Sequence record: KC237308
Strand: one strand, 5' to 3'
DNA: 5,475 bases
DNA from: Enterobacteria phage ID204 Moscow/ID
How positions within the stretch are numbered: position 1 is the first letter of the stretch; every line of letters starts with the position of its first letter. Position numbers and translations under genes: made by a program. Under the pieces are notes generated by a model. That model worked only from the letters and a program-made list of their open reading frames with translations, made no database searches and was not told the origin of the DNA. This document shows positions 1-5,475 of this stretch, piece by piece.

Positions 1-3
1 ACC

Positions 4-33
4 TTGACACAACCATAACTACATATCTATTAT
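4..33 (+). promoter_or_regulatory. Candidate sigma70 promoter for gene A (pA): -35 TTGACA at 4..9, 18-nt spacer, -10 TATTAT at 28..33
   Basis: Seen in sequence: exact TTGACA hexamer and a 5/6 match to TATAAT with 18-nt spacing. From memory, phiX174 has a TTGACA in the equivalent H-A intergenic position. The -10 assignment is inference; CTATTA at 27..32 with a 17-nt spacer is an alternative. Confidence 0.45.
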
Positions 34-34
34 G

Positions 35-59
35 CCTCCAAATCATCGGAGGCTTTCTT
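35..59 (+). promoter_or_regulatory. Stem-loop CCTCC (35..39) / GGAGG (48..52) with an 8-nt loop, followed by a pyrimidine-rich tract CTTTCTT; it sequesters the gene A Shine-Dalgarno and may be the readthrough terminator after H
   Basis: Seen in sequence: perfect 5-bp inverted repeat whose 3' arm is the GGAGG Shine-Dalgarno 9 nt upstream of the ATG at 62. From memory, phiX174 has the same arrangement (CCTCCAAATCTTGGAGGCTTTTTT before the A start). The regulatory or terminator role is inference. Confidence 0.4.
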
Positions 60-61
60 AC

Positions 62-1723
62 ATGCAACAAGCTAGTGACTTCTACAACAAACCACATATC
101 GACGCTATAAAACCACTCGTTGAAACCGCTGGTATGTCTGTGCTCTCTCAATCTCCAAACCTCCGTATCTGGAAACAGGTAAATTCTCGCATCAAACTTC
201 TGGAAGAAATTCTCGCTCATTACACCAATGGTATACGCCGTGACGACAACGGCGACTTCTGGATGAATCCTAACTCTCAACTCGCAACTACAATTGCCTA
301 TCGTGCCCATCAAAAAGGACACAATCCAAAACTTATTCAATACCCTGATACATTCACTCTGGATGACATTATCCGTAAAAAGCCATTACCACAAAACGCC
401 CCTGACGAATTAAAACTCTCCGATGAAATCGGGGAAGACTATCGCCTTACAATCATCTCTCTAATCGAAGAAATGCAAGAAATCTACGACGTGCTCGGAC
501 AACTTGATATTAATAACACTATAGACCACAAACCTATCGGTAACGCCCACTGGAATCTACTCTATGAAAAACCTGTCTATAAACACTGGTATGAACTGGT
601 ATCAAAACGACCCCTTAAATCAATCAGAGACGACTACAACTATGCAAAGGCTAAGGGTATCAAAGATGAGTGCTCGAAAATCCTTGAGGAATCTACTATG
701 AAATCACGTAGGGGCTTTACCGTTCAAAGATTAATGAATGCTATGCGTACCGCTCACACTGAGGGCTGGTATGTTGTATTCGATACTCTTACTCTAGCCG
801 ATGACCGCTTAAAGGACTTCTATGATAACCCCAATGCTCTTCGTGACTACTTTCGTGATATTGGTCGCATGGTTCTCACTGCCGAGGGTCGTTCTGTGCA
901 TGATTCATCTGCGGACTGCTATCAGTACTTTTGTGTGCCTGAGTATGGCACCCAGCACGGCCGTCTACATTTTCACGCAGTGCACCTTATGCGCACACTT
1001 CCTCTGGGTTCTATCGACCCTAACTTTGGTAAGCTGGTGCGTACTAATCGGCAAATAAATAGCTTGCAAAACACATGGCCTTATGGTTACTCTATGCCCA
1101 TCGCGGTTAGATACTCCCAAGATGCGTTCTCACGCGCTGGCTGGCTCTGGCCTGTTGATACAAAGGGTGAACCCCTTAAAGCTACCTCGTATATGGCTGT
1201 CGGCTTCTACGTCGCTAAATACGTTAACAAAAAATCAGATATTGACATGGCCTCTAAAGGTCTAGGGAATAAAGAATGGAACAATTCACTCAAAACCAAA
1301 ATCAACCTGTTGCCCAAGAAAATCTTTCGCATCAGAATGTCCCGCAACTTCGGAATGAAGCTCCAGTCAATGAGTCACCTCTCAGCGGAAACACTCATTC
1401 AACTGACCCAAGTGGGTTACGACGTGACCCCGTTCAACAACATCTTGAAGCAGAACGCCAAGAAAGAGCTCAGATTGAGGCTGGCAAAGAAATCTGTCGC
1501 CGACGTTTTGGAGGCGCAACCTGTGACGACCAATCTGCTAAAATTCATGCGCAATTTGACCCGTCAAATCGGAGTGTCCAGCCTACAGAGTTTTATCGCT
1601 TCAATGACAACGAAATTAACAAGTATGGATATTTCTGATGAAACCAAAAACTACGTTGATACTTCAGGAATTGCTTCTACTCACTTACGAATTAAATCGA
1701 AGTGGACTGCTGGCGGAAAATGA
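62..1723 (+). CDS. A: Replication initiation protein A (HUH rolling-circle endonuclease), 553 aa
   Basis: The translation aligns along its whole length with phiX174 gpA as I recall it (for example the C-terminal block ...KSKWTAGGK). The HUH motif HFHAVH is encoded at 968..985 and the active-site tyrosines of YVAKYVNKK at 1208..1210 and 1220..1222. I chose the ATG at 62 because it follows GGAGG (48..52) at 9-nt spacing and matches the position of the phiX174 A start. The ORF track's ATG at 32 is in frame but has no Shine-Dalgarno and lies inside the predicted -10 element. Stop TGA at 1721..1723. Confidence 0.93.
500..529 (+). other. Viral (+) strand origin of rolling-circle replication, 30-nt core recognised and nicked by protein A; predicted nick between G506 and A507
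   Basis: Seen in sequence: CAACTTGATATTAATAACACTATAGACCAC, which matches the phiX174 origin 30-mer as I recall it. It lies inside gene A, encoding ...[10 protein letters not shown]..., as in phiX174. The nick position is taken from established knowledge of phiX174 gpA cleavage. Confidence 0.85.
698..1723 (+). CDS. A*: Protein A* (N-terminally truncated A, from an internal in-frame start), 341 aa
   Basis: In-frame ATG at 698 (MKSRRGF...) preceded by GAGGA at 686..690 with 7-nt spacing. Position and length (341 aa) match the phiX174 A* start as I recall it. Whether this start is used is inference by homology. Confidence 0.75.
1276..1638 (+). CDS. B: Internal scaffolding protein B, 120 aa, overprinted inside gene A in an alternate frame
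   Basis: ORF-track translation MEQFTQNQ...[15 protein letters not shown]...[16 protein letters not shown] aligns with phiX174 gpB (120 aa) as I recall it. A purine-rich AGGGA lies at 1264..1268 upstream of the ATG. Stop TGA at 1636..1638. Confidence 0.92.
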
Positions 1724-1790
1724 TGAAATTCAATCTCAACTTAAAGAATTCGAGAAGCTCTTACTTCGTCACCTTTCGCCATCACCTTAA
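1638..1790 (+). CDS. K: Protein K (small non-essential protein), 50 aa, overlapping the end of A and the start of C in a third frame
   Basis: Not in the ORF track (too short). Hand translation from the ATG at 1638 gives [50 protein letters not shown], with stop TAA at 1788..1790. It matches phiX174 gpK ([31 protein letters not shown]...) as I recall it. The ATG shares its A with the stop codon of B (TGATG). Confidence 0.8.
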
Positions 1791-1974
1791 CGTCTTGGCA
1801 AAGACTGACGCCCTCGACGAGGAAAAATACCTAAACATGCTAGGTGCTCTCCTCAAGGACTGGTTCCGGTATGAAGAGCATTTCGTACATGGTAAACAAT
1901 CAATGCTTGACTTATTAAATGAACGTGGACTATTATCCACATCAACAACCAACCCAAAAGGAAATACAAAATGA
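1720..1974 (+). CDS. C: Protein C (switch from RF replication to ssDNA synthesis and packaging), 84 aa
   Basis: Translation [58 protein letters not shown]... matches phiX174 gpC as I recall it. The ORF track begins at a GTG at 1702; the ATG at 1720 overlaps the A stop as ATGA, the same arrangement as in phiX174. Stop TGA at 1972..1974. Confidence 0.88.
1907..1936 (+). promoter_or_regulatory. Candidate sigma70 promoter for the D-E-J-F-G-H late transcript (pD): -35 TTGACT at 1907..1912, 18-nt spacer, -10 TATTAT at 1931..1936
   Basis: Seen in sequence. It lies inside gene C about 35 nt upstream of D, in the same relative position and with the same architecture as the phiX174 pD region as I recall it (TTGACA ... 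GCGTGGATTACTAT). Activity is inferred. Confidence 0.5.
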
Positions 1975-2426
1975 ATTCTAACGAATCTGCTGTTGCTTTC
2001 GCTACTGCTCTTGCATCTATCAAGCTCATCCAAGCTTCATCTGTGCTGGACCTGACCGAAGACGACTTCGACTTCCTAACCCGTGACCGTGTATGGATTG
2101 CTACCGACCGCTCCCGTGCTCGCCGCGCTATTGAGGCCTGCGTATATGGTACATTGGACTTTGTCGGATACCCTCGCTTTCCTGCTCCTGTTGAATTTAT
2201 TGCTGCCGTCATTGCTTATTATGTTCATCCCGTTAACATCCAGACAGCATGTCTTATTATGGAAGGCGCCGAATTCACCGAAAATATTATCAATGGTGTT
2301 GACCAGCCAGTTAAGGCCGCTGAACTATTCGCTTTTACCCTGCGTGTACGCGCCGGAAACACTGACCATGTTACACATGCAGAAACTAACGTACGTGAAC
2401 AATTACGTGCTCAAGGAGTAATGTAA
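1971..2426 (+). CDS. D: External scaffolding protein D, 151 aa
   Basis: Translation is near-identical over long blocks to phiX174 gpD as I recall it (TALASIKLIQAS.VLDLTEDDFDFLT...WIATDRSRARR...EACVYGTLDFVGYPRFPAPVEFIAAVIAYYVHPVNIQTACLIMEGAEFTENIING). AAAGGA lies 8 nt upstream. The ATG overlaps the C stop as ATGA. Stop TAA at 2424..2426. Confidence 0.96.
   Translation: MNSNESAVAFATALASIKLIQASSVLDLTEDDFDFLTRDRVWIATDRSRARRAIEACVYGTLDFVGYPRFPAPVEFIAAVIAYYVHPVNIQTACLIMEGAEFTENIINGVDQPVKAAELFAFTLRVRAGNTDHVTHAETNVREQLRAQGVM
2146..2421 (+). CDS. E: Lysis protein E (MraY inhibitor), 91 aa, overprinted inside gene D in the +1 frame
   Basis: Internal ATG at 2146 within the 2083..2421 ORF gives MVHWTLSDTLAFLLLLNLLLPSLLIMFIP..., matching phiX174 gpE (MVRWTLWDTLAFLLLLSLLLPSLLIMFIP...) as I recall it, including the transmembrane helix and the proline at position 21. 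GAGG at 2133..2136 lies 9 nt upstream. Length of 91 aa equals phiX174 E. Confidence 0.9.
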   Translation: MVHWTLSDTLAFLLLLNLLLPSLLIMFIPLTSRQHVLLWKAPNSPKILSMVLTSQLRPLNYSLLPCVYAPETLTMLHMQKLTYVNNYVLKE

Positions 2427-2506
2427 TGGCTAAAGGCTCTCGTCGGCGTTCGCCGTCCCGCTCTAAAGGTGCTCGCCTCTGGTATGTTGGCGGCACACAA
2501 TTCTAA
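2426..2506 (+). CDS. J: Small basic DNA-binding/packaging protein J, 26 aa
   Basis: Not in the ORF track (too short). Hand translation gives MAKGSRRRSPSRSKGARLWYVGGTQF, with stop TAA at 2504..2506. The C-terminal GARLWYVGG motif matches phiX174 gpJ as I recall it. AGGAG at 2414..2418 lies 7 nt upstream. The ATG shares one nucleotide with the D stop (TAATG). Confidence 0.88.
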   Translation: MAKGSRRRSPSRSKGARLWYVGGTQF

Positions 2507-2512
2507 TCTTCT

Positions 2513-2534
2513 AGGGGCTTCGGCCCCTCTATTT
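2513..2534 (+). terminator. J-F intergenic hairpin AGGGGC-UUCG-GCCCCU (2513..2528) followed by CTATTT; candidate partial terminator and mRNA-stabilising element
   Basis: Seen in sequence: perfect 6-bp G/C-rich stem closing a UUCG tetraloop, immediately after the J stop. The same GGGGCTTCGGCCCC element is present after J in phiX174 as I recall it. Terminator function is from established knowledge of phiX174, not tested here. Confidence 0.6.
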
Positions 2535-2545
2535 AAGGATATAAA

Positions 2546-3829
2546 ATGTCTAACGTTCAAACTTCCGCTGACCGCATTCCTAACGACCTTTCTCACCTCG
2601 TCTTCGAGGCTGGCAAAATCGGTCGTTTAAAAACTATCTCTTGGACTCCAGTTGTCGCTGGCGACTCATTTGAAACTGAAATGGTAGGCGCTATTCGCCT
2701 TTCCCCACTTCGTCGCGGCCTTGCCGTCGACTCTCGTGTGGATATCTTCTCTTTCTATATCCCGCACCGCCATATCTACGGACAACAATTTATTGACTTC
2801 ATGAAAGCTGGCGTTAATGCCGCTCCTCTTGCTCCGGTTACCTGCTCCTCTGGCTGGGATTCTGCTGCCTATCTTGGCACTATTCCATCCTCAAACCTCA
2901 AGGTTCCTAAATTCTTACATCAAGGATACCTTAATATTTACAACAACTACTTTAAGCCACCGTGGGATGCTGACCTTACTTACGCTAACCCATCTAATAT
3001 GCCTGAACAGGATTATAAATGGGGCGTTTGTGTCGCTAACTTAAAATCTATCTGGACTGCCCCCTTACCTCCTAACTCTAAAACATCAGAGACTATGACC
3101 ACTGGTGCTACGTCTATTGATATTATGGGCCTGCAAGCTGCTTATGCTAAATTGCACACCCAACAAGAACGTGACTACTTCATGACTCGTTACCGCGATA
3201 TTATGAAAGACTTCGGAGGTCACACCTCCTATGACGGCGATAACCGTCCTCTTCTGCTTATGCGCTCTGAATTCTGGGCCTCTGGCTATGACGTCGACGG
3301 TACTGACCAAACCTCTTTAGGTCAGTTCTCCGGTCGCGTCCAACAAACATTCAATCACAAGGTACCTCGCTTTTATGTACCTGAACACGGCGTTATCATG
3401 ACTCTCGCCGTTACTCGCTTCCCTCCGACTCATGAAATGGAGATGCACTATCTTGTCGGCAAGGAATCTTTAACCTATACCGACCTCGCTTGCGACCCTG
3501 CTCTTATGGCTAACCTTCCTCCGCGCGAAGTATCCCTTAAGGAATTCTTCCACTCCTCGCCGGACTCTGCTAAGTTCAAAATTGCCGAAGGCCAATGGTA
3601 TCGTACGCAGCCTGACCGCGTCGCATTCCCCTACAACGCACTTGACGGCTTCCCTTTCTACTCTGCTCTGCCGTCTACTGACTTAAAACAACGTGTCCTA
3701 GTTAACACTGATAACTACGACGAAATCTTTCAGTCTATGCAACTCGCACACTGGAATATGCAAACTAAATTTAATACTACCGTCTATAGACATATGCCTA
3801 CGACTCGTGATTCAATCATGACGTCATAA
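2546..3829 (+). CDS. F: Major capsid protein F, 427 aa
   Basis: Translation aligns along its whole length with phiX174 gpF as I recall it (MSN.QT...DLSHL...PLRRGLA.DS.VDIF.FY.PHRH.YG...QGYLNIYNNYFK.PW...TSIDIMGLQAAYA.LHT.QERDYFM.RY...LPTTRDSIMTS), and the length is identical at 427 aa. AAGGA at 2535..2539 lies 6 nt upstream. Confidence 0.97.
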   Translation: MSNVQTSADRIPNDLSHLVFEAGKIGRLKTISWTPVVAGDSFETEMVGAIRLSPLRRGLAVDSRVDIFSFYIPHRHIYGQQFIDFMKAGVNAAPLAPVTCSSGWDSAAYLGTIPSSNLKVPKFLHQGYLNIYNNYFKPPWDADLTYANPSNMPEQDYKWGVCVANLKSIWTAPLPPNSKTSETMTTGATSIDIMGLQAAYAKLHTQQERDYFMTRYRDIMKDFGGHTSYDGDNRPLLLMRSEFWASGYDVDGTDQTSLGQFSGRVQQTFNHKVPRFYVPEHGVIMTLAVTRFPPTHEMEMHYLVGKESLTYTDLACDPALMANLPPREVSLKEFFHSSPDSAKFKIAEGQWYRTQPDRVAFPYNALDGFPFYSALPSTDLKQRVLVNTDNYDEIFQSMQLAHWNMQTKFNTTVYRHMPTTRDSIMTS

Positions 3830-3840
3830 AGCCTATAACG

Positions 3841-3878
3841 TGACAGGGGGAAAAATTTTAATTTTTCGCCCCCTGTCA
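3841..3878 (+). other. Long imperfect hairpin in the F-G intergenic region (arms TGACAGGGGG / CCCCCTGTCA with an internal AAAAATT / AATTTTT sub-stem); candidate terminator and complementary-strand priming or primosome-assembly site
   Basis: Seen in sequence: 10-bp outer stem 3841..3850 with 3869..3878, plus an inner 7-bp A/T stem and a CG bulge. The phiX174 F-G intergenic region has a homologous hairpin around the same AAAAATTTTAATTTTT core as I recall it. The function is inferred from phiX174/G4 knowledge. Confidence 0.55.
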
Positions 3879-3927
3879 GGTTGAACAAGCGCAAGCGCGT
3901 TAGCTACTTAACTTAAGGACTACTACT

Positions 3928-4458
3928 ATGTTTCAATCTTACGTCTCTAATCACACTTCACCTCAAACTAATACAACTATCTCCGGCTCTAAAACCCCTG
4001 CCGCTCTGGCTCCTATTTTATCTACGCCAGAGCTTAGCAGGGCTACTTTAGCCGGAACTATTACTACTACTGCGTTAGCTTCATACGCTGGTCTAGCACA
4101 TATTGTGCGCATTGACCACACTAACGCTACTAATCATCAATTACTAACTATCGCAACCTCTCTCGCGTCTGCCTCGCCTATTACTGCGATGGCTGTACGC
4201 TTCGAGGTTGCTTCGGGTACGGTTCCTACCGCTATCCCTTCTACAGCTACTTACTATCCAATTCAAAATATCATCTCCGGTACCTTCTTATCTGTCCGAG
4301 ATGCCGTTACTATCGAGACTATTCCAACCACTTCGTCAAATGACGTCTATGCTGGTGTCTTTATCTTCTCTAATGCATGGGTTGCTGGCCCTGTCTCTGG
4401 CGTTATCTCTGTCAATCAGGTAAACCGTGAGGTTTCTGTACTCCAACCTCTTAAATAA
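3928..4458 (+). CDS. G: Major spike protein G, 176 aa
   Basis: Translation MFQSY.S...VRFE..S..VPT..P....YYP......G.F..V.D.VTI...P.......VY.G.......WV.......SVNQV..E...LQPLK aligns with phiX174 gpG (175 aa) at the conserved positions I recall. AAGGA at 3915..3919 lies 8 nt upstream. Stop TAA at 4456..4458. Confidence 0.93.
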   Translation: MFQSYVSNHTSPQTNTTISGSKTPAALAPILSTPELSRATLAGTITTTALASYAGLAHIVRIDHTNATNHQLLTIATSLASASPITAMAVRFEVASGTVPTAIPSTATYYPIQNIISGTFLSVRDAVTIETIPTTSSNDVYAGVFIFSNAWVAGPVSGVISVNQVNREVSVLQPLK

Positions 4459-4467
4459 GGAACTACT

Positions 4468-5475
4468 ATGTTTGGTGCAATCGCTGGCGGTATCGCCTCT
4501 TCTCTTGCTGGCGGACTCATCAACAAAGCCTTTGGAGGCGGTCAATCTGCCTCCTCTACTGGCGTTCAAGGTGATGTTCTCGCTTCTGACAATAATGTAA
4601 TCGGTGCTAATGATGCTGGTATCAAATCCGCTATTCAAGGCTCTAATCCACCTAATGGCCAACAAGCTGCTCCCAATGCTATTTCGGGCGTTCTCGCTGA
4701 CACTGGCAAAGACGCCCTATCTTCAATCACTGGCGCTGGCGTTAATAAACTTATGGAAAAAATCGGACTATCTAAAACTGCTTCTGATAAAGGCAAGGAC
4801 ACAAAGGATTATCTTGCTTCTGCATTCCCCGAGCTCAACCCGTGGGAACGTGCTGGCGCTGGTGCTTCGTCTGCTGGCATGGTTGACGCTGGCTTCCAAA
4901 ACCAAAAAGAACTAACTCGCATGCAGCTTGACAATCAAAAAGAAATCGCTAAGATGCAAAACGACACACAAAAGGATATCGCTGGTATCCAATCTGTCAC
5001 ATCCCGGCAAAATACTAAGGACTCTGTCTATGCTCAAAACGAGATGCTCCAATATAACCAAAAAGAATCTATGTCACGCGTTGGCTCTATTCTCGAAAAC
5101 ACAAGCCTCACCAAACAACAACAAACTTCTGAAATTATGCGGCAAATGCTTACTCAAGCTCAAACCGCAGGTCAACATTTTACAAATGACCAAATCAAAG
5201 AGCTTACACGAAAAGTTGGCGCTGATATTGATTCTGTCCGCGCTAACACTGACCGTACCCATGTAGAAACTCAACGCTCAAAACAGGAGGTTCAAAACTC
5301 CCGTTACGCTTCTTCACAAGTCGGTAAAACCGCTAAGGACGTCTCTAATGCAGTTACTGATACAGCTAGCTCTATTGTTGATTATTTTCGTGGTATTGAT
5401 AACAAAGTGGCAGAAACTTATAACAACTATTTCAAAGATGGTAAATCCGACGGAATCGGGTCGAACATCAAATAA
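4468..5475 (+). CDS. H: Minor spike / DNA pilot protein H, 335 aa
   Basis: Translation matches phiX174 gpH as I recall it over long blocks ([15 protein letters not shown]...GGGQ...[23 protein letters not shown]...[73 protein letters not shown]...[39 protein letters not shown]...DGK.DGIGSN). AAGGA at 4457..4461 lies 6 nt upstream. Stop TAA at 5473..5475, which is the last codon of the window. Confidence 0.95.

Follow-up and report, generated by a model that had tools for sequence, protein, structure and literature searches.

In the present work, we examine a stretch of 5475 nucleotides (nt), sequence record KC237308, which is called the window below and comprises the genome of Enterobacteria phage ID204 Moscow/ID. 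The phage is a lytic coliphage of the phiX174 type, its genome being presumably circular single-stranded DNA, and it belongs to the subfamily Bullavirinae and the genus Gequatrovirus. Our main subject is gene G, which encodes the major spike protein, taken together with its ribosome-binding site and the spacer between G and H (the G module). We compare the window with its relatives, above all with phage ID2, and find it very likely that the window is the complete genome of ID204 and that the G module of ID204 or of ID2 has been replaced by recombination since the two lineages split. The genome itself is an already deposited one of a known isolate, and the gene exchange is also of a known kind.

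The eleven phiX174-type genes are present in the canonical order A, A*, B, K, C, D, E, J, F, G, H, all of them intact and on the plus strand. The initial annotation had listed the same set, and this part of it stands. A small correction concerns K, which has 50 amino acids (aa), owing to a nonsense change at codon 51, and not 56. The coordinates of the open reading frames (ORFs) are colinear with those annotated in ID2, G4 and phiX174, with B and K overprinted on A/C and E on D, and each of the ten distinct products (10/10) lies above the gathering score of its own Pfam family. Two hallmarks of the Bullavirinae that are absent from gokushoviruses are both found, namely gpD (Pfam E = 1e-84) and the spike protein G (Phage_G E = 7e-27). 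At the protein level, A, A*, B, K, C, E, F, G and H are residue-identical to GenBank entries AGC34599-34603, 34605 and 34607-34609. All nine entries derive from a single NCBI record of 5475 nt, which equals the window in length, and no difference from ID204 was seen. The positions of all features are collected in Table 1.

The G module and its boundaries

When the window is aligned with ID2 and FL76, the sliding identity is 96-100% everywhere but between ca 3900 and 4460, where it falls to 36-58%. The breakpoints can be placed at base level at ca 3908 and ca 4466: the F-G spacer matches perfectly up to ca 3907, and identity is back at the start of H at 4468. At both edges the identity passes from about 100% to about 50% within some 10 nt. 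Relative to ID2, the backbone has a nucleotide identity of 96.3% and the G module one of 50.4%; the ten non-G proteins are 89-100% identical and G is 40.9% identical.

The same discontinuity is seen in the substitution rates. For the backbone genes A, C, D, F and H, the comparison of the window with ID2 gives synonymous divergences (dS) of 0.09-0.24 and nonsynonymous divergences (dN) of 0.002-0.010, the proportion of differing synonymous sites (pS) being 0.08-0.21. In G, the synonymous sites are saturated, with pS 0.64 and dS of about 1.5, and the proportion of differing nonsynonymous sites (pN) is 0.40. The ratio pN(G)/pN(F) is 39.9 for this pair, as compared to 3.4 for G4 and WA14, an ordinary between-lineage pair. 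In neighbor-joining trees of F and H the window groups with ID2 and FL76, while the G tree makes it the sister of the G4/WA14 clade and leaves the G of ID2 and FL76 outside, weakly attached to phiX174.

Since the boundaries are sharp, the non-coding flanks have changed together with the gene, dS jumps ten-fold and the trees are discordant, the only reasonable explanation is that the G module was replaced as a whole gene by recombination and did not diverge in place. Divergence in place would here mean strong diversifying selection on G, for example by variation in the host lipopolysaccharide (LPS), with no recombination involved. It is true that no other structural gene evolves as fast as G anywhere in the subfamily, that ordinary between-lineage comparisons give pN(G)/pN(F) values of 3.4-6.6, and that G is 43-66% identical between lineages whose F proteins are 88-92% identical. 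However, the dS of about 1.5 in G (pS 0.64) is flanked by 0.16 in F and 0.09 in H, and selection on the protein cannot lift dS about ten-fold, so that this possibility is effectively refuted. The abruptness of both edges, the change of the non-coding ribosome-binding site and G-H spacer, and the conflict of the G tree with the F and H trees also speak against it. Nor was any component of a diversity-generating element found in the window, neither a reverse transcriptase nor repeats. We consider in-place divergence very improbable.

A related observation concerns the translation-initiation regions of G (AAGGACTACTACTATGTTT, 3915-3933) and H (AAGGAACTACTATGTTT, 4457-4473), which are near-identical to each other in the window. 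Both proteins begin with MF, and the two initiation regions of ID2 differ more. The near-identical regions may have come in with the G module.

It is important to ask whether the arrangement could have arisen by misassembly or have been constructed in a laboratory. Gene-swap chimeras of just this kind are indeed made by the Rokyta laboratory, where the ID phages were isolated (PMC4627924). Against this stands the metagenome contig L004 from the European Nucleotide Archive (ENA), which spans both junctions of the G module without gaps at 99.2% identity and is therefore an independent, non-identical copy. In addition to L004, variants of the G allele are found in one contig from the Joint Genome Institute (JGI) and in two Logan contigs, of 4832 and 5505 nt; over the four contigs these are 1-3 residues from that of the window, and 2-3 residues in the latter three environmental ones. 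Among isolates there is no parent candidate for the allele, none being above 56.5%, and the GenBank record names a natural isolate from Moscow, Idaho. Because L004 spans both junctions and allele variants recur in the JGI and Logan contigs, we take the arrangement to be real; an artefact or construct is exceedingly improbable.

The protein encoded by gene G of the window was modeled with AlphaFold (AF2) at a predicted local distance difference test (pLDDT) score of 77. Template modeling (TM) scores of the model to the gpG of G4, PJNS, phiX174 and alpha3 are 0.78-0.81, and the best match among solved structures is G4 gpG (1gff), with a TM score of 0.81 and ca 54% identity over the structural alignment. 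With its intact ORF, its Phage_G match and this TM score of 0.81, the G of the window is predicted to be still a normal, canonically folding spike protein. The closest G in our phage collection, an INPHARED copy of 50,697 records that does not include the ID204 record, has a protein identity of 56.5% at most.

Proposed course and direction of the exchange

We now consider how the G module could have been exchanged. In the scenario that we propose, one of the ID204 and ID2 lineages would have replaced its spike gene after the backbones had diverged (dS of about 0.1-0.2). The replacement would have occurred by homologous recombination during co-infection with an unsampled microvirus, with one crossover in the conserved F-G spacer on the left and the other in the conserved 3' end of G or the start of H on the right. 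The left edge of the swap lies directly downstream of the conserved element of the F-G spacer. That the mechanism was homologous recombination is our inference.

Among the closest relatives, the backbone outlier is the window. It is 95.5-96.3% identical to ID2, FL76 and the Logan contig L018, which are themselves 97.3-98.5% alike and carry ID2-type G. Two sister branches are therefore the candidates for the exchange. According to the G tree, the G of the window would be the genus-typical one and that of ID2 the foreign one. In our own estimate, the ID2 clade would be the somewhat likelier recipient, the ID204 lineage comes second as a serious candidate, and a replacement in both is rather unlikely.

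Several observations weigh against this account. The support for joining the G of ID2 to phiX174 in the G tree is only about 50%. The divergence of either G type from G4 and WA14 is 1.3-1.9 times what an F-calibrated expectation would give. Furthermore, a donor was not found for either G type: outside the ID204 cluster, no G protein exceeds 56% in the phage collection or in a database of 5.8 billion proteins, and no relatives turned up in IMG/VR and the JGI metagenomes, which were searched at the protein level, or in GTDB genomes and complete E. coli genomes, which were searched at the DNA level. With the F-G spacer as bait, ID2 alone was retrieved from IMG/VR and one Lilledu-like contig from the metagenomes, and no further G types on this backbone were seen.

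The exchange postulated here has natural and experimental counterparts. Horizontal transfer is known to occur naturally in microvirid coliphages (Rokyta et al. 2006, as cited in PMC4627924). According to the same paper, when G was swapped between the phages phiX174 and G4, one of the chimeras was viable, and the other depended on spike and pilot proteins supplied exogenously (Doore & Fane 2015, PMC4627924), and recombination has been described at a locus that is at least 60% protein-divergent (Sackman & Rokyta 2013, per PeerJ 2015, PMC4627924). The G protein divergence of 59% between ID2 and ID204 fits the locus described in the last of these. A full-text literature search for 'ID204' returned no phage papers. 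Sackman and Rokyta reportedly used the ID2/ID204 pair itself in 2013.

As to the consequences, G has been proposed as the part of the spike that binds LPS (PMC12328618), and the swap is for this reason likely to alter the receptor-binding and antigenic surface of the phage. One would expect a changed exposed spike surface, and with it a changed LPS or host specificity and antigenicity, on a virion that is otherwise the same. That microviruses exchange their spike gene in the course of evolution is well established, and such exchanges have also been made in the laboratory. Within this theme, ID204 and ID2 provide a clean example of a natural exchange of a receptor-binding gene, with a backbone identity of 96% and a G protein identity of 41%.

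The F-G spacer and the rest of the genome

Upstream of the G module, the F-G spacer contains a large hairpin that is homologous to positions 2305-2371 of phiX174 according to BLAST. In an alignment with phiX174-type hairpins, its apex reads AAAAATTTTAATTTTT, and GGTTGAxCAAGCG(C)AAGCGCG comes next. The alignment comprises six sequences, and 98% of its cells are paired, as compared to at most 58% in slid controls. Compensatory double changes occur in 8 of the 19 hairpin pairs, and the covariation score was not reached in any of 500 shuffles (0/500). The spacer of the G4 type is not matched (26-27% identity, with 40-47 gapped columns per 100).

The phiX174-type hairpin is carried by the window, ID2, WA14, ID18 and the Lilledu group, and over ca 80 nt the spacer element is 100% identical between the window or ID2 and Lilledu, in genomes that are ca 78% identical overall. 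By contrast, G4, ID11 and ID12 have a 136-nt F-G spacer that resembles the G-H spacer of alpha3; in G4, this is the complementary-strand origin recognized by the DnaG primase. The primosome assembly site of phiX174 was reportedly located in the F-G spacer by Shlomai and Kornberg in 1980.

The complementary-strand origin of phiX174 is a hairpin primosome assembly site that is recognized by PriA (PMC5778457). By analogy, the hairpin in the window is a putative PriA-type primosome assembly site, which would serve as complementary-strand origin and/or terminator, and ID204 probably primes its complementary strand in the phiX174 way and not in the G4 way. A more tentative idea, which we regard as possible but doubtful, is that there are two unrelated origin types within Gequatrovirus and that the spacer and G form a hotspot at which origin and receptor-binding modules are shuffled independently between genera. 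If this were true and undescribed, close relatives of G4 would differ in the host priming machinery that they need. The presence of a phiX174-type spacer in G4 relatives may already be known. The occurrence of such a hairpin in the closest relatives of G4 may in any case merit the attention of specialists.

Table 1. Positions of the genes and other features in the window.
Feature	Position	Strand	Remarks
P_A-like sigma-70 promoter	4-33	+	TTGACA 4-9, 18-nt spacer, TATTAT 28-33; 11/12 consensus
Terminator-like GC-rich hairpin, then TTTCTT, in H-A spacer	34-53	+	Terminator scan
Gene A, replication initiator, 553 aa	62-1723	+	Phage_GPA; 98.7% aa identity to ID2; AGC34599
Viral-strand origin, 30-nt gpA recognition/cleavage sequence	500-529	+	30/30 match to phiX174 CAACTTGATATTAATAACACTATAGACCAC
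A*	698-1723	+	Internal in-frame ATG at 698; AGC34600
Gene B, internal scaffolding, 120 aa, overprinted in A	1276-1638	+	Phage_B; 90.8% to ID2; AGC34601
Gene K, 50 aa	1638-1790	+	Protein_K; stop TAA 1788-1790; AGC34602
Gene C, DNA maturation protein, 84 aa	1720-1974	+	Phage_C; AGC34603
Gene D, external scaffolding, 151 aa	1971-2426	+	gpD; 99.3% to ID2, identical to FL76 gpD
Gene E, lysis protein, 91 aa, overprinted in D	2146-2421	+	Microvir_lysis; AGC34605
Gene J, DNA-binding, 26 aa	2426-2506	+	Microvir_J; identical to ID2 gpJ
Gene F, major capsid, 427 aa	2546-3829	+	Phage_F E = 4e-163; 97.9% to ID2; AGC34607
Large F-G spacer hairpin	3837-3882	+	DNA fold -20 kcal/mol, z = -4.5; within spacer 3830-3927 (98 nt)
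Putatively exchanged G module (ribosome-binding site, gene G, G-H spacer)	~3908-4466	+	~50% nt identity to ID2
Gene G, major spike, 176 aa	3928-4458	+	Phage_G; 40.9% to ID2 gpG (179 aa); AGC34608
Gene H, DNA pilot / minor spike, 335 aa	4468-5475	+	Microvir_H; 98.2% to ID2; AGC34609

The completeness of the genome follows the description in the initial annotation closely. The window starts 3 nt upstream of the -35 hexamer of P_A and ends with the stop codon TAA of H at 5473-5475. When the ends are joined, the H-A spacer becomes 61 nt long, its phiX174 counterpart being 63 nt (3918-3980), and the total length of 5475 nt lies between those of phiX174 (5386) and alpha3 (6087). The circular permutation proposed there agrees with three independent metagenomic G4-like contigs, which read from H straight through into A and to which the joined junction aligns gap-free at the join. 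The linear permutation is the same as that of the GenBank record of ID2. The terminal overlap of the relative L018 closes a circle of 5486 nt, and 5475 nt fits the 5.4-6.1 kb range of the Bullavirinae.

The P_A-like promoter, whose function is suggested by its position in comparison with phiX174, is also kept in ID2. In the junction alignment, the terminator-like hairpin is kept in the contigs L006-L008 and in phiX174. The start of A is annotated at 62, downstream of an in-frame ATG at 32 that would add 10 codons (MPPNHRRLSY) across this hairpin; the upstream ATG is kept in ID2. For the viral-strand origin, none of 200 shuffles (0/200) reached the observed match.

The life cycle would be that of a phiX174-type phage. 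The gpA protein would nick the 30-nt origin and start rolling-circle replication; B and D would scaffold F and G pentamers into procapsids, into which C and J would package the DNA. E would lyse the cell, and G and H would form the 12 spikes that recognize LPS and deliver the DNA.

Gene K is shortened by a single substitution, G1788T, which converts codon 51 from GAA to TAA and leaves 50 aa, the K proteins of ID2 and G4 having 56. In gene C, which overlaps K here, this substitution is silent (CTG to CTT). The GenBank annotation of ID204 also gives K as 50 aa, and the truncated K stands alone in its own protein cluster.

We turn finally to the question of additional content. The initial annotation had held that the genome has no inserted cassette, and this is what the alignments show: the global alignment with ID2 (5486 nt) contains indels inside the G module only and no rearrangement, and since the window falls 11 nt short of ID2, an accessory insert would have no space. 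Large indels or rearrangements relative to other relatives were also looked for and not seen, and the best matches of F, G and H are all from the Bullavirinae. In a megablast search, the phage collection returned Bullavirinae only, with ID2 as the top match at 96.2% identity over 91% of the window. An Rfam scan of the window gave zero matches, and a repeat scan gave short direct repeats at chance level only, the sole strong inverted repeat being the F-G spacer hairpin.

The initial annotation had further expected any novelty to lie in overprinted frames or in lineage-specific differences. The latter expectation is borne out by the replacement of G; the former is not, as nothing genome-specific was found in overprinted frames. 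A rival reading would place the main interest of the genome in some hidden function, encoded by an overprinted gene or by a small accessory element. In H, the +1 frame (4604-5266) has open stretches of 116 and 104 codons, whose positions agree between the window, ID2, G4 and WA14, and there are alternative-frame open stretches of 91 and 69 codons inside G. However, such open frames are common to the genus and to phiX174, where the +1 frame of H is open for 205 codons, so that ID204 is not special in this regard, and the long open frame in H is probably a compositional effect. In the ORF inside G, the TTG start adjoins GAGG directly, so that the distance required by a ribosome-binding site is missing, and the lack of spare length, of Rfam matches and of strong inverted repeats other than the spacer hairpin also speaks against this reading, to which we give very little credence. 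For phiX174, Jaschke and co-workers are said to have demonstrated by synthesis in 2019 (PNAS) that the 11 annotated genes are sufficient. The main use of our result in this respect is a negative one, namely that the window has no inserted cassette or novel system.

Relation to known phages

The closest relatives of the window are ID2, FL68, FL76 and one Logan contig. The latter, L018 (Logan SRR11772951, 5516 nt), has a 30-nt terminal overlap and is a fourth genome of the ID2 type; its backbone is 98.5% identical to that of ID2, and it carries the ID2-type G of 179 aa. In global alignments, the genome-wide identity of the window is 91.6% to ID2 and 90.9% to FL76. The usual species line for phages is a genome-wide nucleotide identity of at least 95%, and both values are below it. 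This is because of the G module, the backbone alone being 96.3% identical to that of ID2. NCBI taxonomy still files ID204 (taxid 1273714) under Gequatrovirus talmos, alongside ID2, despite a genome-wide identity of less than 95%.

The divergence of the backbone from ID2 is uneven, with differences at 11 of the 120 residues of B and at only 7 of the 553 residues of A. FL76, for its part, departs from both ID2 and the window along a large part of F, where it is 86-93% identical to the window. The stretch of F at 2700-2920 was considered as a second recombinant patch, and this was rejected, as ID2 is still the top match there at 91% and there is no alternative donor. A site-by-site scan showed that the differences between the window and ID2 are scattered along the backbone, with no clear second block. 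The uneven divergence hints at further small-scale mosaicism within the talmos group.

ID2 Moscow/ID/2001 (NC_007817), FL68 and FL76, which belong to G. talmos, have the same gene order and permutation as the window. In comparison with ID2, the proteins A, C, D, E, F and H are 97.6-99.3% identical and J is 100% identical, while B and K are at about 90%; the F-G hairpin is identical, and the 61-nt H-A spacer has the same layout. The differences are that G has 179 aa in ID2 and 176 in the window, and that K has 56 aa and 50, respectively.

G4 (1GFF), the type member of Gequatrovirus, has the same eleven-gene architecture, with F 92% and A 90% identical. It differs in its F-G spacer, which is 136 nt long and takes the place of the 98-nt hairpin spacer of the window, and the genome-wide identity is ca 80%. 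phiX174 belongs to another genus, Sinsheimervirus, and is more distant, with identities of 65% for F, 68% for H and 36% for G. It has all eleven genes of the window in unchanged order, and the 30-nt origin is identical and the F-G hairpin homologous.

The closest parallel to the exchange itself is found in the known microvirid G chimeras. In these, a single spike gene was precisely exchanged on a constant backbone, with G proteins about 60% divergent. The exchange in the window would be the natural counterpart.

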